The notes beneath the pieces are model-generated. The model had not been told where the DNA came from and did no database searches. It saw only the letters and a list, made by a program, of their open reading frames with translations. Positions 44,304-60,267 of a stretch of 64,000 nucleotides of DNA are shown here, piece by piece. The position numbers and the translations under genes are program-made. The stretch is from IMG/VR virus record IMGVR_UViG_3300046516_000137, one strand, 5' to 3'. Position 1 is the stretch's first letter. The number at the start of each line of letters is the position of its first letter. Source of the DNA: an uncultured virus (IMG/VR IMGVR_UViG_3300046516_000137) (lineage: Duplodnaviria; Heunggongvirae; Uroviricota; Caudoviricetes).

Positions 44304-44522
44304 TTATCCTCTTTGTTGAACTGTCCAGCCAGGATCGAAATCCTCTGGTCGGTCATGGGGACAGTCAGGACCCGCATAGACATGCTTTCCATCGACATAG
44401 ACACAACGGTCTACCTCCATAGGAAGATGCCAAGGAGCAGACTGTCCTCCGTGGGCTGACCAGCTTTCTTCCTGCCAGGCAGCACCTTCATCATACACTG
44501 GGTGATTAAACTCAATAGACAT
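44304..44522 (-). CDS. hypothetical protein
   Basis: Operon packing. Confidence 0.55.
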   Translation of the reverse strand: MSIEFNHPVYDEGAAWQEESWSAHGGQSAPWHLPMEVDRCVYVDGKHVYAGPDCPHDRPEDFDPGWTVQQRG

Positions 44523-44940
44523 CGAAAACTTCGCTCATATCTGGAGGTGAGTAGGTTGGTGGTTTGATTACCTTACCAAACTCATTGTAGTGCACTTGAC
44601 CATCGGGCCACAACTTGTCCATATTTGACTGGTGGACGATACTGAATGCTGTTTCCAGATCAATATGAAGTTCTTCAGCAGCACCATAGACTACATAGAG
44701 TAGATCAGCCAATTCCTTAGCCAGATGCTCCATGTTATCTGCGGCTGTATGAACAGAACCAGGAAAAGCTATGTCACGCTTTACATCCATTAGGGCATCT
44801 ATTACCTCATTGAACTCTTCCTGTATAAGCTGACGACGTTTGTTAATTAGGGAAACAGACAATTCCCTGTCATACCTAGACTCTTTATCAGGATCGAACT
44901 TGTCGTGAAACTCTTTGAGAGACTTCATCGGACTATACAT
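44512..44940 (-). CDS. MazG/PRA-PH-like NTP pyrophosphohydrolase
   Basis: LIQEEFNE, KELADLLYVVYG, VHQSNMDK, GKVIKP. Confidence 0.88.
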   Translation of the reverse strand: MYSPMKSLKEFHDKFDPDKESRYDRELSVSLINKRRQLIQEEFNEVIDALMDVKRDIAFPGSVHTAADNMEHLAKELADLLYVVYGAAEELHIDLETAFSIVHQSNMDKLWPDGQVHYNEFGKVIKPPTYSPPDMSEVFDVY

Positions 44941-46022
44941 TAATACTGTACCCCATTTACACTGAAACAACCATCCTGAACAGTGACAAGACGTGGGTAA
45001 ACACGCTGTCCGTAAACCTCAAGAATTCCGAATGCCTGCTGCCAGTTAGCCGCAACACCCTTCTTCTTAAGATAGTCAGCCTTAGTCAGATCCATGAAGT
45101 GACCAACCTCAAGACCAGTCAGAGTATTGCGAATCTGGCCGTTGTAGCCAGTAGACTCAGAAGTCATACCAGCACGGTGGGTGTGACCACAGACAGTAGA
45201 GACTCCGAACTTGTTCTTGGCCAGACCGAATGCTGTCTTACCAGCAGAAGGACTGAGAGAACCTTCATCACCATGAGCCATAACCCAACCTGGTGCAAGC
45301 TCTACAACCTCATCACGGATAAACTCTACATCGTACTTATTGAAATGCATAAGAGTTTCAAGACTGAGTTCATCGTCCATAAAGGACGCCAGACCTGGTG
45401 CACAGTTCTCAATGTACAGTTCCAAGCGGTCATCATGGTTGGAACGAACAATACGGAACCGACCATCAAAAACCTCACGAATGTCTGCGAGAATTCCTCG
45501 GGCAGTCTTAAATCCTCCACTGAGATCACCAGCAAATTCTGGCTTCTTTCCGCGAACCCAACGACTGATCTCAGTAGAGTCAGTGAAGTCACCGACCTGT
45601 GCAATCTCAGTAGGCTGGAAATCCTTGATGAACTGAATGAACTTGTCCACCAGAGCTACATCATGGAGAGGAGCCTGCACATCTGGCATGACCACAATGG
45701 TCTTAGGCTTTTCCTTGTAAGGAAGGAAAGTAACAGTGGAACCTACTGGCTTGGTGTCAGTAGTAGTAAAAGTAGGAAACGGCTTTACCTTAGGCTCAAA
45801 CGGATTAGAAAGGTCAACATAGTTCACTACGGGAGGAGTCTCTTGGATCTGCATCTTCTCACGGTAACTGCGAACCAGACTATCAGACACTATGTATTCC
45901 GTCTGTGCGAATATCTGCTTTACTGCATTCCTGCGGCCCAGAAGAGTATCCTCCAGAATTTCCCTGACCAGGTCATCCTCATCCGCAAGATCCTGAAGCA
46001 CTGCCAAACTCTTGATCTGCAT
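44940..46022 (-). CDS. calcineurin-like metallophosphoesterase
   Basis: PDVQ, GDFTD, SNHD, AHG, GHTH. Confidence 0.88.
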   Translation of the reverse strand: MQIKSLAVLQDLADEDDLVREILEDTLLGRRNAVKQIFAQTEYIVSDSLVRSYREKMQIQETPPVVNYVDLSNPFEPKVKPFPTFTTTDTKPVGSTVTFLPYKEKPKTIVVMPDVQAPLHDVALVDKFIQFIKDFQPTEIAQVGDFTDSTEISRWVRGKKPEFAGDLSGGFKTARGILADIREVFDGRFRIVRSNHDDRLELYIENCAPGLASFMDDELSLETLMHFNKYDVEFIRDEVVELAPGWVMAHGDEGSLSPSAGKTAFGLAKNKFGVSTVCGHTHRAGMTSESTGYNGQIRNTLTGLEVGHFMDLTKADYLKKKGVAANWQQAFGILEVYGQRVYPRLVTVQDGCFSVNGVQY

Positions 46023-46655: not shown

Positions 46656-47708
46656 TTACTCTGCTTCTGGCCGTACTAAATCCCATACCTTATTGGCAAT
46701 ATCCTTGTTATCCAGTAATGCGAATAAAAGACCTGCATTAGGACTGTCCTTTACATAAAGAGCGAAATCCTTACGTGTGGCAACTCCCTGAAAGTAAAGC
46801 TCTACTGCATGAAACTCTGCACTGATCATAGTATAGGTATCCCAGTAGGCATCAAAGATTACCTGGTAAGTAGAGCGTAACCACTCATGCCATTCATCAG
46901 GAACGATACTGCATAGTTCCTCTAAGGTCTTGCCTTCCTTCATGTTCTCCCAGATCCGACGCTTTGTCAAACCCGTCACGATCTTGTGTAAAAGTACGTA
47001 GTCCTCTTGCTTCAGCTTGATCCTGTAGTCCAGATCGGGGAAGCAGATGACGTAGCCTTCTGCATTGGGTCTAGGAGCGGCTTCTATGGCCTCTCTGAGC
47101 GTCTTGTAGGGGAAGGTAGTGGTCTTGGGACCATACCACTCTTCTACGTCCTTAGCGGGGCGTATAGAGCCTGTTATGGCGTTACGTGCAGCCAAGAGAA
47201 CCAGGTCTTCACGATCCCCATAATTCAGAACGATACGGTTACCTGGATAGATGATCTCTACCAGGTAAGTCTCCTCATGCCACAGATCAAGTTTGTAACC
47301 CTTGTGAGCAGTATTCAAAAACTTGGTTGCCCAGATTGCCTGGTCTGAAACAAAGGAACCACGGGTAGCTACATACCAGTTGTTATGGTACTCAAAGACG
47401 ATACCTAGTGAACCGTCCATCTTGTCAGTTACTTCAACTCGGTAGCTATCCAGTAGACAGTTGTCATCAGGATCTTGTCCGTAATTCAGGAACTTGTCAA
47501 AAGGACGGGCAACAATATTCAACTTGTTGTCAATAATGAGACCACGACACTGTCTGGTTACCTTATTCCACTCATTGTCAAACTGAGCCTTCTCTGTATA
47601 GTTCACGATACTAATCGGTAAAGTGGGGTGCTTATTAACCCTAATATACTTGTCAATTAGCATCTTCCGATAGAGACTCATCGGCATCAGTCCTGAAAGC
47701 TTCGTCAT
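46656..47708 (-). CDS. RNA ligase (T4 Rnl1-like)
   Basis: CRGLI, ARPFDKF, motif I KMDGSL, TRGSF, EGYV, RIKLK. Confidence 0.92.
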   Translation of the reverse strand: MTKLSGLMPMSLYRKMLIDKYIRVNKHPTLPISIVNYTEKAQFDNEWNKVTRQCRGLIIDNKLNIVARPFDKFLNYGQDPDDNCLLDSYRVEVTDKMDGSLGIVFEYHNNWYVATRGSFVSDQAIWATKFLNTAHKGYKLDLWHEETYLVEIIYPGNRIVLNYGDREDLVLLAARNAITGSIRPAKDVEEWYGPKTTTFPYKTLREAIEAAPRPNAEGYVICFPDLDYRIKLKQEDYVLLHKIVTGLTKRRIWENMKEGKTLEELCSIVPDEWHEWLRSTYQVIFDAYWDTYTMISAEFHAVELYFQGVATRKDFALYVKDSPNAGLLFALLDNKDIANKVWDLVRPEAE

Positions 47709-48186: not shown

Positions 48187-48215
48187 GCCGAAGCTAAACA
48201 GAGCATTTAGTGGAG

Positions 48216-48299
48216 TGGATGCCGAGGGACTTGAACCCCCAGACCCCGAAGGGAGCAAATTTACAGTCTGCGACGCTACCAATTACGCTTTAGACATCC
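48216..48299 (-). tRNA. tRNA-Tyr(GTA)
   Basis: Cloverleaf; loop CTGTAAA; long variable arm. Confidence 0.9.
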
Positions 48300-48403
48300 A
48301 TTGGTACCCGAGCCAATCCCTGTCCTTCCTCATTATATAGAGGCGACTAGAGCATCGAATACATTCGCTACGCGGTGGATTTTTATTTACGTAGGACCGT
48401 AAG

Positions 48404-48476
48404 AGGGAAGGACGGGGCTCGAACCCGTAGCCACTGGGGTCACATCCCAGTAATCTGCCAATTGATATACCAACCC
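48404..48476 (-). tRNA. tRNA-His(GTG)
   Basis: Loop ATGTGAC; two acceptor-stem mismatches. Confidence 0.8.
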
Positions 48477-48512
48477 AAAGCTAGTTTACACTAGCGACGT
48501 TCTTACTGCAAG

Positions 48513-48584
48513 TACGAGTACCAAGAGTTGAACTTGGGACTAGACTTTATCAGAGTCTCGTGATAACCGTTTCACCACACTCGC
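48513..48584 (-). tRNA. tRNA-Ile(GAT)
   Basis: Loop CTGATAA. Confidence 0.9.
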
Positions 48585-48585
48585 A

Positions 48586-48894
48586 TTATTCAAGACCAGA
48601 TATTATTTCCTTTATGAATACCTTAGGCTTAGCGCCTACGACATACTTAATGATACTGCCCTTGTGGAACAAAAGCATAGTGGGTATAGATGAGATATCG
48701 TATCTCTTTGTCAGTTCTGGATTCTCATCCGCATTGACCTTTACTACATCTAGCCAGTCGTTCTCTTCTGCTACTGATTCTAGCACAGGAGCCATCATCT
48801 TGCAAGGGTTGCACCAGGTGGCCCAGAACTCTACAAAAACTGGCTTCTCAGATTCAAGTACCTCTGAGAATGTATCAGTAGTAATATCTCTCAC
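48586..48894 (-). CDS. trxA: thioredoxin
   Basis: FWATWCNPCK, ISSIPT. Confidence 0.92.
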   Translation of the reverse strand: MRDITTDTFSEVLESEKPVFVEFWATWCNPCKMMAPVLESVAEENDWLDVVKVNADENPELTKRYDISSIPTMLLFHKGSIIKYVVGAKPKVFIKEIISGLE

Positions 48895-48918
48895 TATTCC
48901 CTCTTTCTTTTATTCACG

Positions 48919-48993
48919 TATCCCAGGCAGGGCTCGAACCTGCATATCTCCTGTATATAAGACAGGGGCCGTCACCAATTTGGCTACTGGGAC
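48919..48993 (-). tRNA. tRNA-Ile(TAT)
   Basis: Stem CCTGT/ACAGG, loop CTTATAT. Confidence 0.85.
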
Positions 48994-49083
48994 ATTACAT
49001 GCATTTAGTTGGCAGCCATCTCCCACTACAGGCGGTACTGTGTTGCTATCCCTTAGCCAACGGGGTTATGCATGAACCATACG

Positions 49084-49166
49084 TGGAAGATAAAGGAATC
49101 GAACCCTCAGGCTTTCACACCTGGCACGGTTTTCAAGGCCGTTTCGCACCCTGTGCGCTATCTTCC
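49084..49166 (-). tRNA. tRNA-Ser(TGA)
   Basis: Loop CTTGAAA; long variable arm. Confidence 0.88.
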
Positions 49167-49170
49167 AAAG

Positions 49171-49254
49171 CGGTAGATGTGAGAATCGAACTCACTGGGC
49201 CTTTATAGCCCTACTATATTTCCAGTATAGCTGCTCACCGGCTGCATATCTACC
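49171..49254 (-). tRNA. tRNA-Ser(GGA)
   Basis: Loop CTGGAAA; long arm. Confidence 0.85.
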
Positions 49255-49261
49255 ATTGGTG

Positions 49262-49341
49262 CGGAAGGCAGAGTACTCGAAACTCCAGCCGTTAAACTGA
49301 ACGGATTAGCAATCCGTCTGCCCACCTCGGGCTTACCTTCC
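49262..49341 (-). tRNA. tRNA-Ser(GCT)
   Basis: Loop TTGCTAA; long arm. Confidence 0.85.
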
Positions 49342-49345
49342 AGAG

Positions 49346-49422
49346 AGCGCATAGGGAGAGTCGAACTCCTAAGTAGCAGTTTTGCAGACTGCCCCCGCGC
49401 CCTGCGAGTTAACTCTACGCGC
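49346..49422 (-). tRNA. tRNA-Cys(GCA)
   Basis: Loop CTGCAAA; U73; irregular D region. Confidence 0.8.
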
Positions 49423-49423
49423 A

Positions 49424-49597
49424 TTAATCAATAATCACAACTTCACTGTAGCTAAGACGATATGTCTTAATCTTATCCCCATCCATCTTGGCAGTACACC
49501 AAGTTGCTTCACTCCGGGTAATTCTGCCTTCTTTACCGAATGCGTTACTACGAGGGTTCGTAACCTTGATCCTAGTACCTTCTTTGTTCTTACCCAC
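49424..49597 (-). CDS. 57-aa SH3/KOW-like micro-protein
   Basis: GTG start with RBS GGAGG; GTRIKVTNPRSNAFGKEGRI. Confidence 0.6.
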   Translation of the reverse strand: MGKNKEGTRIKVTNPRSNAFGKEGRITRSEATWCTAKMDGDKIKTYRLSYSEVVIID

Positions 49598-49612
49598 AGT
49601 TTGCCTCCGTGT

Positions 49613-49756
49613 TTAAAGAAACTCTACTTCGGACTTCTTGTAGTAAAGCGTATCCTTGCCTATCTTAACAAGAACTTGGTCATCCAGCAAATGGACAACT
49701 ACGCCTCTCTTGCCCGCATTCTTACCCACAAGAATAAGGACATGTCTGTCAGCCAC
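49613..49756 (-). CDS. 47-aa KOW-motif micro-protein
   Basis: GTG start with RBS AAGGAG; VLILVGKNAGKRGVV. Confidence 0.65.
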   Translation of the reverse strand: MADRHVLILVGKNAGKRGVVVHLLDDQVLVKIGKDTLYYKKSEVEFL

Positions 49757-49778
49757 TATATTTCTCCTTGTTTGAAAG

Positions 49779-49857
49779 TGGAGATAGGGGGAGTCGAACC
49801 CCCGCTCCTAGCTATTCCGCGTGCGGTTTCAAAGCTAGTCGAATCCAGATAATCCCC
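49779..49857 (-). ncRNA. minimal tmRNA-like RNA (tRNA-like domain only)
   Basis: 5' GGGGATTATCTGGATTCGAC matches the tmRNA 5' signature; P2 CTAGCT/AGCTAG; T arm GGGGG-TTCGACT-CCCCC; G3.U70 and A73. Confidence 0.75.
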
Positions 49858-49938
49858 ATAAATGCACAGGCACCAAGCCTCTGTGCTCCCAGGTCAACGA
49901 ATAACATAACCATCTCCTAAGAGACCCTGGCCCTTACG

Positions 49939-50009
49939 TACCCACTGAGGGAATCGAACCCCCGCAATCTGTGTGTAAAACAGATGGTCTTCCATTAACC
50001 TAAGCGGGC
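49939..50009 (-). tRNA. tRNA-Val(TAC)
   Basis: Loop TTTACAC. Confidence 0.9.
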
Positions 50010-50042
50010 AAACACCCTTTCGGGCGGTATTACTATTGTAAC

Positions 50043-50246
50043 TTAAAACATTCTAGTAGGAGTAAACATATCAGCAGGAAGAGTTTCAGACTTCACATGA
50101 TTTCCTACCCAAGTAATATCTACTACTAGATTACCATGGTCGTCTCTGTATTCATCACTATTTGCATGAGCTTTACTATTACGTGGACCCCACAGAGAAT
50201 CTCCTGCTTGAATCTCGTTTCGTTTCTTTCCTAACAAGAATCCCAT
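50043..50246 (-). CDS. hypothetical protein
   Basis: RBS AAGGAGG before MGFLLG. Confidence 0.65.
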   Translation of the reverse strand: MGFLLGKKRNEIQAGDSLWGPRNSKAHANSDEYRDDHGNLVVDITWVGNHVKSETLPADMFTPTRMF

Positions 50247-50264
50247 CGTTGCCTCCTTTTGGCG

Positions 50265-50337
50265 TGCGCCTGGAGGGACTCGAACCCCCAACCTAACGGG
50301 TAGAAACCGTTTGCTCTATCCTTTGAGCTACAGGCGC
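50265..50337 (-). tRNA. tRNA-Arg(TCT)
   Basis: Loop TTTCTAC. Confidence 0.92.
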
Positions 50338-50359
50338 AGTGCCCTTTCGGGCGGTATTA

Positions 50360-50692
50360 CTAGGAGATAACCATTTTCTGTAGTGCTATTGACCAGATAC
50401 CGTGTGCCGCCAGAGTATTCAAGTCTTCACATGCATCAGGATCATCCTTGGAACAGATTTCCCAACCCTTGCTAGTCCATTTGGTCCAGAGATTGTACTC
50501 TTGACACTCGGCAATTCCTGGCCAAATACCCTGCCATACGGTATTACAATCATATTCATTATGATCATCACCCCAACGCTGACGTCCTGTCAGAGCGCAT
50601 CTGGCAATGTCACAACCTTCTTGATGAAACTCTCCGATACTTACCGAACAATCAGGACAGTTTTCTCGTAGTTCCTGCACTAATGCCTCCAC
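50360..50692 (-). CDS. Cys-rich hypothetical protein
   Basis: CPDC...HQEGCDIARC. Confidence 0.7.
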   Translation of the reverse strand: MEALVQELRENCPDCSVSIGEFHQEGCDIARCALTGRQRWGDDHNEYDCNTVWQGIWPGIAECQEYNLWTKWTSKGWEICSKDDPDACEDLNTLAAHGIWSIALQKMVIS

Positions 50693-50787
50693 ACTAGAAG
50701 TTAATCCAGATCGATTTTGGCCTCTGGAGGAGCCACCATGTATTGAGGCTTTCTAGGGTGCGTTTCAACATGGATTAGGTTTCCCTG

Positions 50788-50860
50788 TACGGCTAGAGGG
50801 ATTCGAACCCCCGACCTTCTGATTCGTAGTCAGATGCTCTATCCACTGAGCTATAGCCGC
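50788..50860 (-). tRNA. tRNA-Arg(ACG)
   Basis: Loop CTACGAA. Confidence 0.93.
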
Positions 50861-50874
50861 AAAACCCCGAAGGG

Positions 50875-51018
50875 CTAGTTTGCATTGTGACGTCTTGACA
50901 AGTGCATTTGTAGTCCTACTTCGGCATCTTTCTTAGTCTTGTACCCTGAAATGCCTATCTCACTTCTACACCACTTACACTGCCAATACCAACATAGTTC
51001 TTTAGAATAATCAACCAC
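50875..51018 (-). CDS. 47-aa C2H2-like micro-protein
   Basis: RBS AAGGAG; CKWC...HLSRRH. Confidence 0.55.
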   Translation of the reverse strand: MVDYSKELCWYWQCKWCRSEIGISGYKTKKDAEVGLQMHLSRRHNAN

Positions 51019-51036
51019 TGGATTACTCCTTGTTAA

Positions 51037-51549
51037 TTACTTCTTCAATCCTAGCAGATACTTTCTCAACTTACCAGGCGTAACCAGGTATGGTTCCCTG
51101 TCAGTCAAAGTAGAACCCACTTCATCATAGTCCTCAGAAACTAGCTGAGAACAGATAAGGTGCTTGGAATCAAGGACTCTCTTGGTAACTCCTGGAGCCT
51201 TGATGTGAAAACGATACATCGCAATTGCCAGATAGTCAAGGAAGCTGTACTTTACTCCTACTTGCCCGACTGCTCTGTTAACTATAGTAGTACGCTGGTC
51301 ATCTGTCAACTGAACCAGACCTGTTGACCAGAGGATACTGCGTCCATCATACTCACTCAGTTGGGATATACAAGCCCCACCAGGTTCAGCCTCTACGATC
51401 TGACCGTTACCGATATAGATAAAGGCGTGTTCATAGTTGGAGAACCCATCTCCATTCAACCACTGTCCTAAGCGTATCAACACTCCTACGCCACCAGCAA
51501 TGGATACAAGTCCGAAGTCTCCTGGTAACGGAGTTACACTATCAATCAT
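51037..51549 (-). CDS. permuted papain-like NlpC/P60 (YiiX/YebB-like) protein
   Basis: PGDF, HAFIYIG, VEAEP, KYSF, ICSQLV. Confidence 0.85.
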   Translation of the reverse strand: MIDSVTPLPGDFGLVSIAGGVGVLIRLGQWLNGDGFSNYEHAFIYIGNGQIVEAEPGGACISQLSEYDGRSILWSTGLVQLTDDQRTTIVNRAVGQVGVKYSFLDYLAIAMYRFHIKAPGVTKRVLDSKHLICSQLVSEDYDEVGSTLTDREPYLVTPGKLRKYLLGLKK

Positions 51550-51699
51550 CACACTTCTCCACATGAACTCTTAAAGCCACATTAGCATCATGCTCAGTGG
51601 AAAACGGACCTTCTACGTGCTTACGCTTGTCACTACATTGATGGGAGTATGCCCAACCTCTGTTAGCCTTATATACCATTTTATTCTCCTTATTATACG

Positions 51700-51770
51700 T
51701 ACCCCACCACGGTACTGCCCCGTGTTTCGCGGGGTAAAAGCCCGCTACATCACTTTAATGTTTGTGAGGC
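51700..51770 (-). tRNA. tRNA-Lys(TTT), non-canonical T loop
   Basis: Loop CTTTTAC; T loop GGCAGTA. Confidence 0.75.
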
Positions 51771-52041
51771 GCAAATCATTAGCCGTCTTCTCTAAATGGC
51801 ATGGATTACATAGTAGTTGACATTTGTCAACCTCAGCCCAAAAGAAATCCTCACTTCTAGAGGAAGCTCTTGCTATTGCCATTAGTTTAGTTGAGGGGTC
51901 AATGTGATCAAACTCTAAATCTTCTGTCTCTCCACAGCTGACACATTGACCTCCCAAATACCCTATGGCCACCTTTCGACGTGTTTCCCATCGACGTTTC
52001 ATATATTCATTCATCTTATTATTATAATCTTTATATGGCAT
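51745..52041 (-). CDS. HNH endonuclease
   Basis: CVSCG...LEFDHIDP...KCQLLCNPCH. Confidence 0.9.
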   Translation of the reverse strand: MPYKDYNNKMNEYMKRRWETRRKVAIGYLGGQCVSCGETEDLEFDHIDPSTKLMAIARASSRSEDFFWAEVDKCQLLCNPCHLEKTANDLRLTNIKVM

Positions 52042-52134
52042 AGCTACAGTATAGCACGGGTTAAAACACAAAAGTTTAACCCTTGTCAACCGGAGACACT
52101 GAGGGGCATAAGGCCATTTCTGGCCCGTTTTACT

Positions 52135-52431
52135 TTAATCAATCTGCCAGCTAGTCTGACAGTCAGCGCAAGTGCCATAATGGCCTCTAGCACCACGAGA
52201 GACTGGTAGAAGAGTTCCAAGACCACCAATAATCTTGCCTGTGAAAAGATTAGTGTTATGGTCCCCACGTCTATCTCTTGGACAGTCAACAAGTTCCCCT
52301 GTTGACCCACCAGGAGAATTCCTGGTAAGATTACGCTTTTCCTTACCATTCTTCTTGTAGTAACGCGCAGCATGGTCATTTACGTCAAACGGCTTACGAG
52401 GTTCTGGCTCTTTCTTACCAAATAAACTCAT
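52135..52431 (-). CDS. Zn-binding hypothetical protein (paralogue A)
   Basis: CP...DHNTNLFTG...TCADC..SWQI. Confidence 0.7.
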   Translation of the reverse strand: MSLFGKKEPEPRKPFDVNDHAARYYKKNGKEKRNLTRNSPGGSTGELVDCPRDRRGDHNTNLFTGKIIGGLGTLLPVSRGARGHYGTCADCQTSWQID

Positions 52432-52664
52432 GATGCAGCATTCCCCTTCTTGTCAGTAAGCTGCCATGCACAACCGCAGTCGTTACAGGTCATATATGTA
52501 CCCTTGTCTCCACGAGATGTACAGAGAAGTGGGTATACCTTCGTTCCATCAGACTGCTGCTTATAACCACAAGTTATCATACCTGTGAAGAGATGGGTAT
52601 TATGGTCTCGTTTGCCACTAGGACAAGGTGGACTGGAATTGAATACCGACCCACCTTTATACAC
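52428..52664 (-). CDS. Zn-binding hypothetical protein (paralogue B; start may be ~52696)
   Basis: CP...DHNTHLFTG...TCNDC..AWQL. Confidence 0.7.
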   Translation of the reverse strand: MYKGGSVFNSSPPCPSGKRDHNTHLFTGMITCGYKQQSDGTKVYPLLCTSRGDKGTYMTCNDCGCAWQLTDKKGNAAS

Positions 52665-52726
52665 AAATGCCTTAATGGTATCACCTAGAAAACTGATAGT
52701 TTGCCTCCTATAGTTTTTATATAACG

Positions 52727-52799
52727 AGCCTTATCAGGGAGTCGAACCCTGTCTCTCTCCGTACCAAGGAGAAGTGCTAACCATAGTCACTAATAAGGC
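52727..52799 (-). tRNA. tRNA-Thr(GGT)
   Basis: Loop TTGGTAC. Confidence 0.88.
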
Positions 52800-52958
52800 A
52801 TAAATTCTATGTGGTGTGCTGCTACGCCAAAGCTGGGGTTATTATTTCTTGCCCAGGACGATTCCTCGTTACCCTTCCGTTCTGGAAGCACTCTTTAAAA
52901 GATGGCTGCTTCTAAGCCAACTTTCCACATATAGGGAAACGTGTACTTTGTTTCCTTG

Positions 52959-53029
52959 TACTCCGCCAGGGACTCGAACCCTGATCCCCAGATTAAGAGT
53001 CTGGTGCATCACCTTAATGCTTGCAGAGC
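52959..53029 (-). tRNA. tRNA-Lys(CTT)
   Basis: Loop CTCTTAA. Confidence 0.9.
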
Positions 53030-53155
53030 ATGTGAGTAGTTCTCGTAACACTACACCATAGACGTTTACTGAAGCCGATATCTATGGTTCATGTTAATTA
53101 TTGGACTCAAAGTCTTCAGTCACCGGAAATCCCTGACTCCTACTCAAAGCCATTG

Positions 53156-53227
53156 TGGAGCAACAGGGAATCGAACCCTGATTTCCGCCGTGCAAAAGCG
53201 GAGTAATAGCCATTATACGAAAGCCCC
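53156..53227 (-). tRNA. tRNA-Ala(TGC)
   Basis: Loop TTTGCAC; G3.U70. Confidence 0.88.
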
Positions 53228-53371
53228 ATTGTGCCGTAAGGAGACCCCACTATCTCTGCGTGAGGTCACCAGGATGAGCCTTAGCCGAGAGATATTACGC
53301 ATATCTCATCCCAGTAGGTTCCCTTACTTGCGCGCCTTACCCTTAGCGTTTGCACTTCCCTGATGTAGTCT

Positions 53372-53400
53372 AGCTTAGCAGATCAGACTCTCAGAGTCAA
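53372..53400 (-). promoter_or_regulatory. sigma70-type promoter
   Basis: TTGACT-17-TAAGCT with extended -10 TG. Confidence 0.7.
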
Positions 53401-53798
53401 TCTTGCCAGACCCAGCCAGATCGGTGTACTTCAACATCACGTTCATGCTTTTCGATCTCATCTGCTGGAATTACCAGAATGTCATCCTGTAGCAGATACT
53501 GCTCCAACGTAGTATACGTATAGGTATAGCTTCCGAATATGCGTGCAGATTCGATATACTCGTTACCTTCATAGCCGCACCCACGCTCATAAGCAGTAGC
53601 TTCTCTCAAGGAGTCGCTTTGAGTAATGGAATAGTCTTCACCACAGCAAGAACACGTTACGTTATTCGGGTCATGGCCAAAACGGCTGTAGAAGACAGAG
53701 GTAGCTTGATTCTCTGGAGCCTGAATGTAGATGTACTGATATGGAGACTCCTTGGTTCCACCACCAGAATGCATATCCATAAACTGTGTCCACACCAT
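53397..53798 (-). CDS. hypothetical phage protein
   Basis: RBS AAGGAGG; FMDMHSGGG, VTCSCCG. Confidence 0.75.
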   Translation of the reverse strand: MVWTQFMDMHSGGGTKESPYQYIYIQAPENQATSVFYSRFGHDPNNVTCSCCGEDYSITQSDSLREATAYERGCGYEGNEYIESARIFGSYTYTYTTLEQYLLQDDILVIPADEIEKHERDVEVHRSGWVWQD

Positions 53799-53830
53799 AT
53801 TGCCTCCTTTATCGTGGTACGTCATTAGGT

Positions 53831-53864
53831 AAAAATAAACTCCACCAGTATTTCTACGGTGGAG
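53831..53864 (-). terminator. intrinsic terminator
   Basis: CTCCACC...GGTGGAG followed by TTTATTTTT. Confidence 0.65.
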
Positions 53865-53877
53865 AGGATTAAGTTAA

Positions 53878-53986
53878 TGATAGATCGTAGCATACCGGAC
53901 TCGAACCGGTGCGACGGACCAGTAACGATCCGTACTCTACCTCTGAGTTAATACTACGAGACTGAATTAACTGTCTCGATCTATCA
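53878..53986 (-). ncRNA. tRNA-like RNA with irregular anticodon loop and extended acceptor stem
   Basis: Cloverleaf at 53886-53958 with canonical D and T arms; flanking 10-bp inverted repeat. Confidence 0.6.
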
Positions 53987-53988
53987 AG

Positions 53989-54061
53989 CTCCCTCGCCCA
54001 GATTCGAACTGGGAACCGGTGTATTAACAGTACACAACTCTGCCTATTGAGTTACAAGGGA
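53989..54061 (-). tRNA. tRNA-Asn(GTT)
   Basis: Loop CTGTTAA. Confidence 0.9.
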
Positions 54062-54138
54062 ATAAACCCTAACCACAAGGGAGAGGGTGTGTTATCAGCT
54101 CAACAAGAGTATCAGGTACCTCTTCTCTCGTCAAGCAG

Positions 54139-54209
54139 CACGACGTCAAGGATTCGAACCCTGGATAACGGTTTTGGAGACCGGTGTGTTACCACTACAC
54201 TAACGCCAT
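54139..54209 (-). tRNA. tRNA-Trp(CCA)
   Basis: Loop CTCCAAA. Confidence 0.88.
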
Positions 54210-54256
54210 AAGTTGGTTCCGTTGTGTAATCGGACAACGGTTTCCTAAAACCTGCG

Positions 54257-54340
54257 TAGCCCTTATCGGATTCGAACCGATACGTCACAAGGACACTGGT
54301 TCCTAAGACCAGCGCGTCTGCCAGATTCCGCCAAAAGGCC
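54257..54340 (-). tRNA. tRNA-Leu(TAG)
   Basis: Loop CTTAGGA; long arm. Confidence 0.92.
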
Positions 54341-54345
54341 ATGCG

Positions 54346-54771
54346 TTAGCTTATTAAGTTATGGACATAATGAGAAGCTTCATAGTCTGAAGCAGAAGCA
54401 TTATGTATTCCGCCGTGTCCTCTATGATGCTTTTCGCACAAGAACATGAAGTTTTCGTCAGATTCTACCCAAGCCCCGATTTCATCAGGATTTGAGATAC
54501 CGGGAAAGTCTCTTTCAAGGTAGGTTAAGTCTACACCCTGCTGCATACTGAATTCAACATGTGCGTGGTGAAGTTCTAGTCCTCCGACACATTCTGCTGT
54601 ATCTCCGCCACGTCTTAGCGCGAAATCACAAACTGCTGTGTCTACATGAGTCTTGCGGTAATGGTTGAAATCCTTGTAATGTGGATCATCTGTACGAGCA
54701 GGGTGAGCAGGAAACGCCACAGTATAGTGCTTGGTTTCTGCTTGACTGTGTGCGTTTACTATCTTACCCAT
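54346..54771 (-). CDS. His-rich HNH-like hypothetical protein
   Basis: LELHH...FLCEKHHRG.GGIH. Confidence 0.65.
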   Translation of the reverse strand: MGKIVNAHSQAETKHYTVAFPAHPARTDDPHYKDFNHYRKTHVDTAVCDFALRRGGDTAECVGGLELHHAHVEFSMQQGVDLTYLERDFPGISNPDEIGAWVESDENFMFLCEKHHRGHGGIHNASASDYEASHYVHNLIS

Positions 54772-54791
54772 GTTGCTCCCTATATGTCAAG

Positions 54792-54866
54792 TAGTCCTAG
54801 TCAGATTCGAACTGACACTAAACGGGACTTAAATCCGTTGCTTCTACCTGATTGAGCGATAGGACC
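54792..54866 (-). tRNA. tRNA-Leu(TAA), short variable arm
   Basis: Loop TTTAAGT. Confidence 0.82.
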
Positions 54867-54875
54867 ATAATAAAG

Positions 54876-54949
54876 TACTCCAGATGGGACTCGAACCCAC
54901 AACGCACAAGGTTTGAGCTTGCGTCCTCTAGCCATTGGGATACTGGAGC
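54876..54949 (-). tRNA. tRNA-Leu(CAA), short variable arm
   Basis: Loop CTCAAAC. Confidence 0.85.
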
Positions 54950-55098
54950 ATAAGTGACGATTCCGGATTAGCATCCGGGAGCCACTACACAGGTCTTTAG
55001 CTTTTAGTCGGTTCAATGCTTGATCCCTTAGATAGTACCCCGGAAGTACTTTCTGTGTCAAGCTGTCCGTGCCAGGAGTTACTGTGCAGAACCTAAAG

Positions 55099-55172
55099 AG
55101 CCGCATGAAGGACTTGCACCCTCCGCCTGTCGCTTACAAGGCGACTGCTCTTCCTACATGAGCTAATGCGGC
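55099..55172 (-). tRNA. tRNA-Thr(TGT)
   Basis: Loop CTTGTAA; T loop TGCAAGT. Confidence 0.88.
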
Positions 55173-55276
55173 AAATACCACTATATCCTATTACCCAATG
55201 TAAGTGGTCAACATCAGAACCCGTATTAGGGGGTTTTAGTGAAAGCCAGCGGAAGGAGGAACACTGGCTTTCCGTA

Positions 55277-55564
55277 TTAGGAGGTTCCGGAAGCCGTAAC
55301 AACCCAGTCTGTGATTGCATTAAGAGTAAAGTCAATAGGCTTTGCAAAAGCGTTTCCGCTTAGGTACACAGTCCAAAGACCATCTGTTCCACCAGCGCCA
55401 GGAGCTACAGGAGCCTGAACAACAGATGTAACTGTTGGATAGCCAAGACCAGTAGCTGGAACAGGCTGAACATAGCAGTGACCGTCAGCAGCAGCTACGA
55501 AAGCAACAGCGGTTCCGACAGTCAGAGCATTTACTCTAGTTGGTGCGTTATAAGTGATTGCCAT
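55277..55564 (-). CDS. A/T/V/G-rich protein of structural-like composition
   Basis: 95 aa, followed by a strong hairpin at 55241-55272. Confidence 0.7.
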   Translation of the reverse strand: MAITYNAPTRVNALTVGTAVAFVAAADGHCYVQPVPATGLGYPTVTSVVQAPVAPGAGGTDGLWTVYLSGNAFAKPIDFTLNAITDWVVTASGTS

Positions 55565-55646
55565 TTTTGAGCCTTTCATGAAAGAACTATATTTAGTTCG
55601 CTATAGCCCTATTATCGTATCATGAAAGGTCATTTAATTCTTAACG

Positions 55647-55718
55647 TACCCCCGGAGGGAATTGAACCCTCTCTTCAGGCTTGAAAGGCCAGTGTACTAA
55701 CCAATATACTACGGGGAC
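55647..55718 (-). tRNA. tRNA-Glu(TTC)
   Basis: Loop CTTTCAA. Confidence 0.88.
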
Positions 55719-55955
55719 AAAAACCCTACCAGTCCCGGAGAACGGTAGGGAACAATCTCGGCAAGGGAACAGTAGTGCCTGCTTCGAATCAGGGACTGTT
55801 GGTGCCTTGCTGAGTATAAATAGTCCTTAGGGTTACCCATCCCTTAACTACACTGAATGGTTGATCACAGGCAGCTTATCTCATTTCAGCTAGCGAGACC
55901 GGATGTGGCTTCAGCTCATCCCGCAATCTCTTGAGACCTGTGAGGGTAACAAACG

Positions 55956-56029
55956 TACTCCGTACGGGGCTCGAACCCGTAATCTCTTCCTTGAGAGGGA
56001 AGTGACTTAACCATTTTGTCCAACGGAGC
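55956..56029 (-). tRNA. tRNA-Glu(CTC)
   Basis: Loop CTCTCAA. Confidence 0.9.
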
Positions 56030-56346
56030 ATATTACTTATTTTTTAGACTGTCTACTACTTTGCGCTGATCCCTGATCTTTGTCGTCAAAGCCTGTCGCT
56101 GTGCACTCTGCTTCACAGTACGCAATTCTTGCATCATCTCATGAAGCTTGTCAAGTGCGTCCTTGTATTCCTGGCTATAACCCATATTACTTGTGTCTCC
56201 TCAGAAGTTCAGTATTGATCTGATCGATTTCTCGTTCAATAAACTTCTTACGTTGTTTTGACAGTCCACCCTGCTTGATGATGTCCTGTCTTAGTTTTAG
56301 ATAGCCTTTTAACTGTTCACTTGTTTTAGACTCTAAATGTTCCATG

Positions 56347-56418
56347 CGCCCACGACGGTATTCGAAACCGCCCTTGCAGCTTGACAGGCTACCGTGCTAA
56401 CCACTACACTACGCGAGC
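56347..56418 (-). tRNA. tRNA-Asp(GTC)
   Basis: Loop CTGTCAA. Confidence 0.9.
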
Positions 56419-56443
56419 AAAGTTGCTTTCGCAACTGGTTAAG

Positions 56444-56752
56444 TTATTCTGGCCAACTAATGTTCGGATACTGCTCAACTGCTATACCATCTCGTACTAT
56501 TACCCTTGACATATCTGGAGATTCTTCTCCATGTCGCAGGATTATCAAGAAGTTGTTGGGATAAGCATATGCTAACTGCTGTAGGTCTGTCAACCAGCCA
56601 TACCACTTAGTACAGTCATAACCGCTTACTTGACCCTCATAGTCTTCCCAACCAGGAGATCCCCAACCATATTGCTCATCAGCATTGTTGAGAACATCCT
56701 TGATATCGGGAATATCTGTATCCACTACTTCGAAAGTAGAGTAATAACCCAT
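56444..56752 (-). CDS. hypothetical protein
   Basis: RBS GGAGG; KWY...GEE motif. Confidence 0.7.
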   Translation of the reverse strand: MGYYSTFEVVDTDIPDIKDVLNNADEQYGWGSPGWEDYEGQVSGYDCTKWYGWLTDLQQLAYAYPNNFLIILRHGEESPDMSRVIVRDGIAVEQYPNISWPE

Positions 56753-56776
56753 AGTTGCCTCCATAGATTGTAAAAG

Positions 56777-56847
56777 CTCCCCCACCAGGGCTCGAACCTA
56801 GACTCCGAGAGCCAAAGGCTCGTGTGCTGCCATTACACTAAAGGGGA
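56777..56847 (-). tRNA. tRNA-Gln(TTG)
   Basis: Loop CTTTGGC. Confidence 0.85.
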
Positions 56848-56851
56848 AAAG

Positions 56852-56922
56852 CTCTCCAACCTGGATTCGAACCAAGGCCAGCGAATTCAGAGTCCGCGAT
56901 GCTGCCGTTACACCATTGGAGA
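56852..56922 (-). tRNA. tRNA-Gln(CTG)
   Basis: Loop CTCTGAA. Confidence 0.9.
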
Positions 56923-56997
56923 ATAAGAGGGTCGCGTATTGGGACAATTCAAACCCAAGAACCAATACCACCTACTCTAGGCGGGAAACCCAGCAAG

Positions 56998-57068
56998 TAC
57001 CGTATGCGAGAATCGAACTCGCGAACTCTGTTTGGAAGACAGATATGTTACCTCTACATCAATACGGC
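56998..57068 (-). tRNA. tRNA-Gly(TCC)
   Basis: Loop CTTCCAA. Confidence 0.9.
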
Positions 57069-57081
57069 ATTATTTAATTGT

Positions 57082-57158
57082 TGGTGGCGGAGCTTCGGAA
57101 TCGCACCGAATTAACCCAGCTTATGAGACTGGTCGAGATAACTAACCTCCCGCCCGCA
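57082..57158 (-). tRNA. tRNA-Met(CAT), initiator-like, CCA encoded
   Basis: Loop CTCATAA; 1:72 mismatch. Confidence 0.75.
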
Positions 57159-57159
57159 G

Positions 57160-57230
57160 TAGCTGATGACAGAATTGAACTGTCGTTGACGGCTTATGAA
57201 ACCGTTGTTCTGCCATTGAACTAATCAGCC
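57160..57230 (-). tRNA. tRNA-Met(CAT) elongator (or Ile2)
   Basis: Loop TTCATAA. Confidence 0.8.
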
Positions 57231-57294
57231 ATACTACTAGACTGAGGAGCCGAACTGCGCTACCTCAATCTTCTCGTCCTTAATAAGCTTCTCT

Positions 57295-57323
57295 ACCTTA
57301 GCAGAGGCTCTAAGAGTCTTCAA
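57295..57323 (-). promoter_or_regulatory. sigma70-type promoter
   Basis: TTGAAG-17-TAAGGT with extended -10 TG. Confidence 0.55.
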
Positions 57324-57361
57324 AGGCTTACGCATATCGTCTCCTTCTAGTTGTTGTAAAG

Positions 57362-57434
57362 TGGCTCCCCCCGGATTTGAACCGAGATACATCGGGCTTC
57401 AACCGATTGCTCTACCAGGTTGAGCTAAAGAGCC
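57362..57434 (-). tRNA. tRNA-Phe(GAA)
   Basis: Loop TTGAAGC. Confidence 0.88.
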
Positions 57435-57512
57435 AATTGAGTTACTTACTTGTATTTAGCATCGTATCTATTATGTGATTTGGTGATGTCTATACGTTGA
57501 TCATAACTCTAG

Positions 57513-57586
57513 TCTAGATGGCAGGATTTGAACCTGCGACCGCCCGAATCCAAGTCGGGTACGCTACCAAACTGCGCTACATCTAG
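57513..57586 (-). tRNA. tRNA-Pro(TGG)
   Basis: Loop CTTGGAT. Confidence 0.9.
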
Positions 57587-57598
57587 ATTAATACTACG

Positions 57599-57670
57599 TC
57601 GGGCACCCGAGAATCGAACTCGGTTTATCCTGTTCCCAAAACAGGCGGATTACCATCTTCCTCGTGCCCG
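57599..57670 (-). tRNA. tRNA-Pro(GGG)
   Basis: Loop TTGGGAA. Confidence 0.88.
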
Positions 57671-59851: not shown

Positions 59852-60267
59852 TGACAGGATTCTGGGAAGACGGAAATTACGGTATGGATTTTCTGGCTGC
59901 ACGAAATAAAGCAGATGCCAAGAAGGCAGAAGCGGCCAGAAAGACCAAATGGGAGATAGAAGAGGAACAGCGCAATAAGCTAGCCGCTGCTCTCTGGAAA
60001 ATGGAGACGCATCCTGGCAGAGACCACTGTAGTAGTTGTTTTGGCGAGTACTATGACGGCTATGCCGGTGGTGGAGTAATGATGGATGGCTACTGCTGTT
60101 GCAAGGACAATGGAATTACCGGAGTCGTTCAGCCGCTTGACGATTATGACTATCGTGTCAAGTATCCACCAGTAAATGGAAAGGTCCCCGAAATCTTTGA
60201 AAAGTGGGGACCAAGAACACAGGAACGCTACCTGAAGAGATTTGAAGGAGAACTAAATGGAGCATAA
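59851..60267 (+). CDS. hypothetical protein
   Basis: TAATG coupling; CSSC...CCC. Confidence 0.65.
   Translation: MTGFWEDGNYGMDFLAARNKADAKKAEAARKTKWEIEEEQRNKLAAALWKMETHPGRDHCSSCFGEYYDGYAGGGVMMDGYCCCKDNGITGVVQPLDDYDYRVKYPPVNGKVPEIFEKWGPRTQERYLKRFEGELNGA

Follow-up and report, generated by a model that had tools for sequence, protein, structure and literature searches.

What, if anything, do the spacers of a viral transfer RNA (tRNA) array encode? The question is raised by a 64,000-nucleotide (nt) stretch of DNA from an uncultured virus of the class Caudoviricetes (IMG/VR record IMGVR_UViG_3300046516_000137), referred to below in its full length as the window. A preliminary description had proposed that at least six spacers of its tRNA array form a series of self-closing, structured non-coding RNAs (ncRNAs) set free by tRNA processing. 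One spacer, 52800-52957 on the minus strand, almost certainly encodes a functional, free-standing RNA replica of the GTPase-associated centre (GAC) of 23S ribosomal RNA (rRNA). The overall reading adopted here for this GAC mimic, to which roughly even chances are given, is that of an off-ribosome decoy, loaded with the ribosomal protein uL11, that diverts a factor aimed at the GAC. The mimic, its parts and its immediate setting are as follows (bp, base pairs; H42 to H44, helices of 23S rRNA; numbering of equivalent positions as in Escherichia coli).

48215..57670, minus strand: tRNA array of 31 tRNA genes with small open reading frames (ORFs) and spacers between them (ARAGORN, Rfam RF00005)
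52958..53029, minus strand: tRNA-Lys(CUU), directly upstream of the GAC mimic (ARAGORN, 53.6 bits)
52935..52955, minus strand: leader hairpin of 6 bp (GGAAAC...GUUUCC) between tRNA-Lys and the mimic
52808..52931, minus strand: GAC-mimic RNA, 124 nt, a self-closed copy of the 23S H42 top, H43 and H44
52925-52931 (UAUGUGG) with 52808-52814 (CCACAUA), minus strand: closing stem, 7 bp
52899..52923, minus strand: H43 equivalent (E. coli 1057-1081), loop UUAGAAGCAGCC
52913, 52909 and 52908: H43 positions A1067, G1071 and C1072, respectively
52893/52892, minus strand: G1087/A1088
52828..52889, minus strand: H44 insert of ~60 nt in the 5' strand, with three small hairpins predicted; the variable domain of the family
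52826/52819, minus strand: C1092-G1099 pair of the mimic
52815..52827, minus strand: H44 tip and 3' strand (G1091 to A1103), GCGUAGCAGCACA; A1095 at 52823
52726..52799, minus strand: tRNA-Thr(GGU), 8 nt downstream of the GAC mimic (ARAGORN, Rfam)

Positions 1051-1108 of 23S rRNA form the GAC, to which uL11 and the thiopeptides bind. In a permissive cmscan, 52807-52932(-) aligns to positions 1089-1152 of the Rfam model LSU_rRNA_bacteria (28.3 bits, E 1.5e-5). The alignment takes in the closing stem, the H43 stem-loop, the junction and the H44 base, and 67 nt stand opposite 5 in the model. The match is limited to these positions of the 2925 in the model, and its score compares with a gathering score of 50. 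With E. coli rrlH as the reference, 29 of 30 bases of the mimic are those of 23S 1059-1088 (blastn-short); the same search with 17 spacers against E. coli 16S, 23S and 5S rRNA gives no match beyond the GAC except stretches of 8-15 nt at E of 0.1 or more. The native continuation of 23S rRNA (H42, H41, H45 and beyond) is absent around the mimic, whose flanks are tRNA genes, its 5' end lying 25 nt past tRNA-Lys(CUU) and its 3' end 8 nt short of tRNA-Thr(GGU). Genuine 23S contigs aligned on the window part from it after the H43 core (loose ends at 52888), and the very high metagenome depth over 52822-52958 is that of real 23S rRNA from other organisms; the mimic sequence itself recurs, identical, in contigs from three further metagenome runs. 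In the folding test, which compares the minimum-energy fold with 200 dinucleotide shuffles per spacer, the leader hairpin reaches -5.8 kcal/mol (z-score (z) -3.03; 1/200 shuffles as good). The family covariance model introduced below, R1, scores the window copy at 103.2 bits (E 1e-25) and finds no second GAC copy in the whole window at E up to 1. A look-alike string (GUUGGCUAAGG...) in 48994-49082 was considered and is not a member of the family.

The mimic has numerous relatives. The exact 18-mer of the H43 loop, used as the seed of a family search in IMG/VR, is present in at least 118 stretches, and among the matches listed none reads on as native 23S rRNA. In 78 of 121 instances of the 18-mer, the motif GCGUAnnAGCAC occurs at a distance of 40-340 nt downstream, and after it comes an exact complement to the 5-nt upstream stem, nearly always at one fixed offset. 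Distinct complete members number 55 and measure 103-408 nt (109-414 nt with 3 nt added at each end); their insert in the 5' strand of H44 ranges from about 40 to 340 nt, and the window copy, at 124 nt, is among the shortest. The family pattern consists of an H44 tip GCGUAnnAGC followed by ACAC, with the variable insert between GAGUG and (C)UUUGG, to which 52815-52893 of the window conforms; the H44-loop positions 1096-1097 are free to vary.

Covariation was assessed in an alignment (A1) that combines the window copy with 29 out of the 35 members no longer than 206 nt, six near-duplicates having been dropped (L023, L034, L039, L052, L086 and L115). Across these 30 sequences, 98% of the cells of 18 specified pairs do pair, compared with 28-58% in slid registers, and double-sided changes occupy 117 cells against 34.8 +/- 4.7 in shuffles, a value reached by 0 of 500 shuffles. 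All seven closing-stem pairs covary across the family; the five inner ones were a selection criterion, whereas no constraint was placed on the two outer pairs, on the H43 pairs or on positions 1092/1099. The lower stem of H43 (1057-1059 with 1079-1081) covaries too, and the window and family members carry the H43 hairpin with loop GGCUUAGAAGCAGCC. Alignment columns 13-37 and 14-36 are paired in 28/30 and 29/30 sequences with three and four pair types, respectively, the latter column pair being GC in 12, UA in 9, AU in 7 and CG in 1.

The model R1, built from 29 other members and the window copy, recovers the genuine E. coli GAC in a control search (56.8 bits). Among cultured phages it identifies a 286-nt copy in Aeromonas phage 4_4572 and a 95-bit copy between tRNA-Asn and tRNA-Pro in Pseudomonas phage pf16 (L130 1197-1387); Xanthomonas phage XacN1, Cronobacter phage GAP32 and Ralstonia phage RSP15 also carry copies, and a Vibrio phage carries a partial one. 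The 3'-core motif of the family also occurs in 69 stretches of a 185,579-species genome collection, of which 43 match R1; they span many phyla, including cultured Firmicutes, and presumably represent prophages or phage contigs in bins. In phages of Proteobacteria, members retain the family's GAGUG...GCACAC and not the host's GAAAG...GCUCAC, which indicates that the family spreads as such, without recapture from each host. Certain R1 matches are of a different nature: that in Paenibacillus phage Pd_22F (L132 1190-1253, near the record end) is 64 nt exactly as in native Firmicute 23S GAC, H42 flanks included, and is probably a genuine rRNA fragment in the record and not a member of the mimic family, and small 'phage' records of 2-7 kb with R1 matches are rRNA fragments. 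In some IMG/VR phages, two GAC-mimic cores are present per array, 0.3 to 3.8 kb apart (L229 4001-4336; L215 226-4018; L255 4001-7793). Rfam 15 holds no family for the GAC mimic, and no description of a phage GAC mimic was found in the literature, as judged by titles and abstract openings.

A tertiary contact of the ribosomal domain is retained along with its helices. The native GAC has C1072 paired with C1092 and bonded to G1099, an arrangement that stacks on the G1071/(G1091-C1100) triple (PMC2952862 and PMC8614978). The RSP15 copy has U at 1072 in combination with U1092-A1099. IMG/VR was scanned for the U1072 loop variant (52 stretches), the 3' ends being located by a pattern that leaves 1092 and 1099 free. 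Members with C1072 have C1092-G1099 in 58 cases and U-A in 1, and members with U1072 have U1092-A1099 in 19 and C-G in 0, so that the rule C/C-G or U/U-A is obeyed by 77/78 members; the 3' end was not located for 41 C1072 and 30 U1072 instances, some of which are chance matches outside the family. The window copy follows the rule with C52908 and C52826-G52819. Since this triple is that of the native GAC, selection maintains a tertiary contact of the ribosomal domain in a phage RNA. At the level of sequence comparison, the mimic family conserves the native secondary structure and one GAC tertiary contact.

The association with tRNA genes is strictly directional. Among 96 distinct instances with flanks of 300-400 nt, a same-strand tRNA is found in 52 and an opposite-strand tRNA in 0, and in 24 of the 96 a tRNA ends 3-11 nt before the closing stem. 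Extending the view to 4 kb on each side of 69 distinct loci gives 446 same-strand tRNAs versus 0 opposed, with at least one same-strand tRNA in 52/69 loci and at least three in 42/69. A same-strand tRNA ends within 15 nt upstream in 18/69 loci and one starts within 15 nt downstream in 13/42; at five loci, as in the window, tRNAs stand on both sides of the mimic within 60 nt. This adjacency makes release by tRNA-processing enzymes plausible. In the window, the mimic would be transcribed with the neighbouring tRNAs. Since tRNA-Lys(CUU) has no encoded CCA, 3' processing there would set the 5' end of the released RNA, and RNase P cleavage at tRNA-Thr would set its 3' end. Release by tRNA processing is considered probable.

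Equally characteristic is the patchy distribution of the mimic among close relatives. R1, applied to the whole records of the five closest relatives, finds it in 0/5, including a complete phage of 112,630 bp. This complete phage is a close relative (locus L120, record G002; 93-97% identical to the window over the array), and its homology to the window stops exactly at the mimic spacer, where an unrelated 106 nt fill the slot with a self-closing hairpin of their own (9-bp stem in the fold, z -1.95). As the five closest relatives lack it, the mimic can be regarded as a swappable cassette. In Streptomyces phage BRock, the slot after tRNA-Lys(CUU), between two tRNA-Lys genes, contains a manA-like RNA (49.7 bits, gathering score 55.2; L125 4582-4745, minus strand), and phages pSt2308, GiJojo and Alone3 have a related conserved RNA of ~245 nt in the same slot (L124 6967-7213, L126 7101-7342 and L127 7608-7853, respectively). 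The GiJojo Lys-Lys spacer matches no Rfam family. A manA-like RNA inside the tRNA array of an actinophage widens the range of manA beyond marine metagenomes and cyanophages.

The arrays of these relatives hold further RNA-related elements. Four BRock-group phages have a Ro60-like gene inside the array (e.g. L124 4909-6480), and in the two scanned with Rfam, pSt2308 and BRock, weak matches of the YrlA type (32-33 bits versus a gathering score of 69) lie between this gene and tRNA-Asn (L124 4348-4463; L125 6944-7002 and 7296-7357). The Ro60-like gene and the YrlA-like RNA likely constitute a phage Ro-Y RNA module. The window lineage has a 142-amino-acid (aa) ORF (53397-53825) where the BRock group has the Ro60-like gene, and the three loci with relatives of this ORF (L121-L123) have no tRNAs. 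The earlier notion of tRNA-punctuated ncRNA cassettes therefore holds for the GAC mimic and for the manA-like and YrlA-like RNAs of relatives, with one cassette identifiable in the window itself. As a separate observation, pSt2308 shows an Rfam tRNA match of 37.4 bits extending across 154 nt (L124 2327-2480) between tRNA-Asp and tRNA-Glu, possibly a tRNA gene split by an insert or intron.

Protein neighbours offer little regularity. Clustering of 776 neighbouring ORFs from the 69 loci reveals no conserved protein partner of the mimic, the top clusters occurring at 7, 5 and 5 of the loci, and this lack of a regular neighbour suggests that the partner is probably a host component. In 5/69 loci, a kinase-phosphoesterase-Rnl1 fusion is encoded no more than about 3 kb from the mimic, and in XacN1 a gene for a 2'-5' RNA ligase is located directly upstream of it.

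The isolated 58-nt GAC domain binds uL11 tightly, and the mimic retains those determinants that sequence comparison can check. The mimic would fold like the native domain and would act off the ribosome, capturing something that normally recognises the GAC; binding of uL11 itself is, on balance, predicted. Together with host uL11, it would form a decoy particle that keeps a GAC-aimed factor off real ribosomes, the diverted factor being either a toxin similar to Tre23, from a defence system or a competitor, or a sensor of the RelA type. Tre23 is a type VI secretion toxin that ADP-ribosylates H44 in the region of 1095-1098 and impairs EF-G (PMC8661411). A protective role against attack on the GAC is proposed tentatively, and a role in blunting the stringent response is regarded as less likely still. 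The patchy presence of the mimic in phages that are nearly identical is more in keeping with a countermeasure than with a core take-over function.

Several considerations weigh against the decoy reading. The transcription, ends and stability of the mimic RNA are all inferred, and uL11, a toxin, RelA, translation GTPases and thiopeptides are all conceivable ligands. Much of the invariance of A1067, A1095 and the H43 loop follows from collecting members by the exact 18-mer and the 3' motif, and relatedness among the sequences inflates the shuffle statistics of the alignment. The freedom of positions 1096-1097 is awkward for a decoy of a toxin that reads those bases, but not for one of a toxin acting on the backbone. 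The link to RNA-repair genes is weak (5/69 loci) and may reflect only that such genes tend in general to accompany tRNA arrays. Nor is the fold energy of the mimic remarkable (z -1.80; 13/200 dinucleotide shuffles as good); the element at 52808-52931 is real beyond doubt on comparative grounds, not thermodynamic ones.

Among the alternatives, the one that survives best, though it is still rather unlikely, holds that the mimic titrates newly made uL11 or RelA, so that RelA is only weakly activated while phage tRNAs, in part uncharged, fill the cell, and (p)ppGpp spares the translation needed by the phage. RelA activation depends on uL11, and the full uL11-binding fold is, to judge from sequence, retained in the mimic; under this proposal, the link to tRNA arrays (446 versus 0) would be more than a convenience of processing, and the window encodes a MazG-like pyrophosphohydrolase (44512-44970). 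Enzymes of the MazG type are, however, common nucleotide-pool enzymes, uL11 is so abundant that its titration needs very high RNA levels, and close relatives that have the same array, in which a general take-over function ought to be present, carry the mimic in 0/5 cases.

The broader proposal of the preliminary description, that six or more of the flagged spacers are discrete, stable phage ncRNAs freed by tRNA processing, is improbable. The eight flagged intervals other than the mimic, together with a tRNA gene missed at default thresholds, are as follows (shuffle counts give the shuffles as good as the spacer).

53033..53146, minus strand: spacer from tRNA-Ala to tRNA-Lys, 7-bp closing stem and two hairpins; z -3.41, 0/200 shuffles
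53231..53360, minus strand: spacer downstream of the 142-aa ORF and upstream of tRNA-Ala; z -1.87, 8/200
54953..55094, minus strand: spacer whose centre differs from L120; z -1.53, 14/200
55832..55950, minus strand: 7-bp closing stem, within the 236-nt spacer from tRNA-Glu to tRNA-Glu; z -0.92, 37/200
48998..49074, minus strand: palindromic 7-bp closing stem CAUGCAU/AUGCAUG; z +0.38, 124/200
48302-48398: spacer, z -1.03
49863-49933: spacer, z -0.36
56926-56992: spacer, z -0.87
49345..49420, minus strand: probable divergent tRNA-Cys(GCA) (ARAGORN at 80% thresholds; same call in L120)

The flagged intervals do all lie between minus-strand tRNA genes (ARAGORN, Rfam), and they hold no credible ORF, the touching ORFs of at least 25 aa starting in or running into tRNA genes. 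The self-closing ends also exist, as 7-bp stems in 48998-49074, 52808-52931, 53033-53146 and 55832-55950, but they are mostly no better than those of shuffles: terminal stems of 7 pairs at the spacer ends arise in 7-16% of shuffles per spacer, and a stem as long as that of 48998-49074 arises in 12% of its shuffles. At least 7 such pairs are seen in 5/12 spacers tested, against about 0.07-0.16 expected for each, a modest collective excess that favours the series. The proposal is further favoured by the z of -3.41 of 53033-53146, by spacers conserved like ORFs between the window and L120 (97.0% and 96.8% identity, respectively), two of them at 100% over 236 and 74 nt, by the manA-like and YrlA-like RNAs in relatives' arrays and by the different self-closing element that L120 carries after tRNA-Lys(CUU).

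Folding, homology and covariation point the other way. Against dinucleotide shuffles, only 53033-53146 stands out, the rest of the eight ranging from z -1.87 to +0.38, and 8/9 fold energies of the flagged intervals lie within about 2 standard deviations of shuffles. Over 48-58 kb, Rfam at the gathering score and at E up to 10 yields no spacer match except that to the large-subunit rRNA at 52808-52931, leaving the other eight intervals unmatched. With nhmmer and the five relatives, no homologues of the other flagged spacers were found beyond the L120 phage; the sole spacer with a counterpart in the four BRock-group phages is 54062-54137, a weak match. Distant blastn against INPHARED, tried for two regions, returned nothing for 53030-53154 and, for 55719-55954, a 31-nt chance-level match only (E 0.8); whole-region blastn output was dominated by tRNA matches. 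Where the spacers differ from L120, predicted pairs are more often lost than retained: summed over 10 aligned spacers, 3 compensatory changes stand against 15 broken pairs, which leaves nothing convincing by way of covariation. In short, of the claimed series of at least six, one ncRNA is identifiable in the window, and the other eight intervals have no Rfam match, distant homologue or convincing covariation.

Individually, 53033-53146 is the best of the remaining spacers and a candidate RNA, with 2/3 of its differences from L120 breaking predicted pairs. In 53231-53360, all 3 changed pairs relative to L120 are broken. Within 54953-55094, which has 2 compensatory changes and 5 broken pairs relative to L120, a promoter-like TTGACA-18-TACTAT is present at 55061-55032. 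The 236-nt Glu-Glu spacer ends in a hairpin and then a U-run just before the downstream tRNA-Glu, and it is uninformative on covariation because 236/236 bases are identical in L120. Some 'spacer' sequence is tRNA-like, given that the probable tRNA-Cys at 49345-49420, where Rfam gives a tRNA-clan match of 26.3 bits (49347-49422), was missed at default thresholds. ARAGORN at 80% thresholds adds a tRNA-like remnant at 54053-54131, and at 70%, an unreliable level with about 35 extra calls on both strands, it adds 49857-49937. None of the six main intervals is called as a tRNA at relaxed ARAGORN thresholds, and the spacer 57231-57360 contains a ribosome-binding site and a micro-ORF. Certain intervals may be better read as tRNA-like relics (49857-49937 and 54053-54131) or as promoter sequence. 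For the other eight flagged spacers, the most likely readings are ordinary spacers for processing, relics of tRNAs, sequence of a promoter or terminator, or elements private to the lineage, and it is improbable that at least three of them are stable functional RNAs. Terminal stems and hairpins in tRNA-array spacers are not, on their own, evidence of ncRNAs.

Y RNAs were considered for the self-closing spacers and set aside: the lineage is without a Ro60 gene, which makes Y RNAs unlikely among the window spacers. A domain scan of the complete relative G002 finds no TROVE/Ro60, and the window array has no ORF of Ro60 size. A YrlA match at 54809-54927 (24.5 bits, E 0.11, gathering score 69) overlaps two tRNA-Leu genes and was rejected.

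It has also to be considered whether the mimic merely acts in cis, its compact fold guiding or protecting the processing of neighbouring tRNAs as an exonuclease block or an RNase P/RNase E spacer, with no ligand in trans. The tRNA ends lying no more than 15 nt away in a substantial minority of loci (18/69 upstream, 13/42 downstream) are compatible with such a role, as are the other small hairpins that precede window tRNAs. Any stable hairpin would suffice for this purpose, however, leaving the GAC loops, the 1072/(1092-1099) triple and the H43 covariation unexplained; moreover, 17/69 loci have no tRNA within 4 kb, and close relatives process the same tRNAs without the mimic. A role in cis is accordingly held to be quite improbable.

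More doubtful still is the idea that the mimic and uL11 soak up thiostrepton-class antibiotics at the A1067/A1095 cleft and so sustain translation in an infected soil actinomycete. It draws on the Streptomyces setting of the BRock-group phage, the rhizosphere metagenomes, the presence of both A1067 and A1095 in the window copy and the binding of thiopeptides to H43/H44 (PMC8661411). Yet the four named Streptomyces-phage relatives all lack the mimic, and the family extends to phages of Pseudomonas, Xanthomonas, Cronobacter, Aeromonas, Ralstonia and Vibrio and to assemblies from many phyla, for which exposure to thiopeptides is no obvious common factor; stoichiometric titration of an antibiotic by RNA would also be costly. 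This explanation is very unlikely.

That the mimic is a dead 23S rDNA fragment, a functionless capture from a host, is scarcely credible: phage records can hold genuine rRNA pieces, as Pd_22F illustrates, but the mimic has its own closing stem and a family-specific insert and 3' strand (GCACAC, not GCUCAC) common to phages of unrelated hosts with differing 23S rRNA, the covarying stems and the base triple contradict it, and the identical sequence in three further metagenome runs also counts against it.

The phage itself has a well-defined setting. All of the tRNA genes ARAGORN finds in 48215-57670 (31/31) are on the minus strand, and Rfam at the gathering score supports 26/31 of them in addition to an 82-nt gene resembling transfer-messenger RNA (tmRNA) at 49776-49857. 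Outside the array, the window codes for structural proteins of a myophage, namely sheath, baseplate, portal, terminase and major head. In its major capsid protein (32281-33312), the window phage shares 83-85% identity with Streptomyces phages BRock, Alone3, LuckySocke, pSt2308 and GiJojo, and it is, to judge from such similarity, a BRock-like Streptomyces-type myophage. The window DNA is also present in rhizosphere metagenome runs. Genes and domains of RNA or nucleotide metabolism in the window, and the tmRNA-like gene, are as follows.

46656..47708, minus strand: T4 Rnl1-type RNA ligase, just downstream of the array (Pfam RNA_lig_T4_1 6.1e-16, PHROG 562 2.6e-70)
4452-5357, minus strand: PNKP kinase-phosphatase (domain scan of window ORFs)
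60257-60787, plus strand: HAD domain of 'Swiss Army Knife' RNA-repair proteins
61396-61977, plus strand: Rv2179c-like 3'-5' exoribonuclease
44512-44970: MazG-like pyrophosphohydrolase (domain scan of window ORFs)
49776..49857, minus strand: mini-tmRNA of 82 nt, matching the tmRNA model RF00023 at its two ends only (54.8 bits against a gathering score of 47)

The first four of these entries make up a full set for RNA repair and RNA turnover, which suggests that the phage expects damage to its own or to host RNAs. The BRock group conserves the mini-tmRNA, which is found in L120 (9998-10079), pSt2308 (L124 11857-11937) and BRock (L125 641-721) as well, at 54.8-64.5 bits; ARAGORN calls neither a tmRNA nor a tag at this gene, and the stretches of the BRock and pSt2308 records that were inspected have no annotated feature at its position. 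If it accepts alanine and binds SmpB without a template, the mini-tmRNA would be another imitation of a translation component.

The tRNA genes themselves display unusual features. That at 53885-53958 (minus strand) has a 6-nt anticodon loop, GUUACU, for which ARAGORN gives the label 'Stop|Val (ta)'; its Rfam tRNA score is 45.3 bits, it is 100% conserved in L120, and it could be a suppressor-like tRNA, a frameshifting tRNA or a decoy substrate. Between the window (48215-57434) and L120, tRNA identity is bimodal, whereas ORFs and spacers are ~97% identical. Among 29 RNA genes aligned over their full length (28 tRNAs and the mini-tmRNA), 19 are identical at 100% and four more at 97-99%. Nine tRNAs (His, Asn, Trp, Phe, Gly, Ala, Leu(UAA), Tyr and Val) are only 65-84% identical, though their flanks are identical; the same anticodon is called in L120 for eight of these, and for the ninth, Val, ARAGORN makes no call in L120, so that the TAC anticodon is taken from the alignment. 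It looks as though individual tRNA bodies have been exchanged between the two phages, one allele for another, which would fit diversification under tRNA-targeting defences.

Imitation of a ribosomal site by RNA is, to our knowledge, known only from bacterial mRNA leaders that regulate their own ribosomal protein genes. A near-complete, free-standing GAC copy present in phages of many hosts, with its native fold under selection and swapped between near-identical phages, implies that phages manipulate or shield the GAC off the ribosome. Should the ligand be uL11 or RelA, host take-over would have a new route; a toxin as the ligand would point to undiscovered defence systems directed against the GAC. 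In a wider and more speculative view, which is favoured by a minority of the weight given here, phage tRNA arrays would serve as exchange platforms for trans-acting RNA countermeasures beyond codon supply, with a uL11-loaded counterfeit stalk base drawing off attack on the GAC or starving RelA. The enzymes of tRNA maturation would then free cassettes that can replace one another, among them the GAC mimic, manA-like RNA, Y-like RNAs and the mini-tmRNA. If true, this would be the rRNA counterpart of phage tRNAs that replace tRNAs destroyed by host nucleases. The presence of the family in cultured phages (pf16, XacN1, GAP32, 4_4572 and RSP15) makes the role of the mimic directly testable.

Among known systems, the manA RNA motif (RF01745) resembles the mimic in being a phage-borne structured RNA, and a manA-like RNA fills the same slot in BRock; in sequence and fold, however, the two are unrelated. 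manA is known from marine metagenomes and T4-like cyanophages and was described as a candidate riboswitch in 5' untranslated regions (PMC2864571). Rfam at E up to 10 gives no manA match in 48-58 kb of the window. Y RNA/YrlA (RF02553) with Ro60 likewise comprises small self-closed RNAs in or beside tRNA clusters; unlike these, the mimic has no tRNA-like domain, and the window and its complete close relative are without a TROVE/Ro60 gene.

A closer parallel in principle is provided by the autoregulatory mRNA leaders of ribosomal protein genes, which imitate rRNA binding sites (e.g. the L10 leader, RF00557). Like the mimic, they are RNAs that imitate a protein-binding site of rRNA off the ribosome and are able to compete for the protein. 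They are, however, cis-regulatory, located 5' in bacterial ribosomal protein operons, and partial imitations, whereas the mimic is a near-complete copy, encoded by a phage and followed by tRNA-Thr. At E up to 10, no Rfam family of ribosomal protein leaders matches the mimic, and no ribosomal protein domain was found in the window ORFs scanned (Pfam for 55/98 ORFs and the 3'-open ORF 1-816; PHROGs for further large ORFs).

The native GAC (the top of 23S H42, H43 and H44; E. coli 1051-1108) remains the nearest relative in form. The mimic departs from it in standing free, outside a 2.9-kb rRNA and with a covarying 7-bp stem of its own, in the insert in the 5' strand of H44, in having A and not U at 1101 and variable bases at 1096-1097, and in being encoded by phages among tRNA genes. 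It shares with the native domain the H43 loop and stem, the junction UUUAAAG, G1087/A1088, the hexaloop of H44 with its closing pairs G1091-C1100 and C1092-G1099, the C1072/(C1092-G1099) triple together with the alternative U/U-A, and a closing helix in the place of H42.

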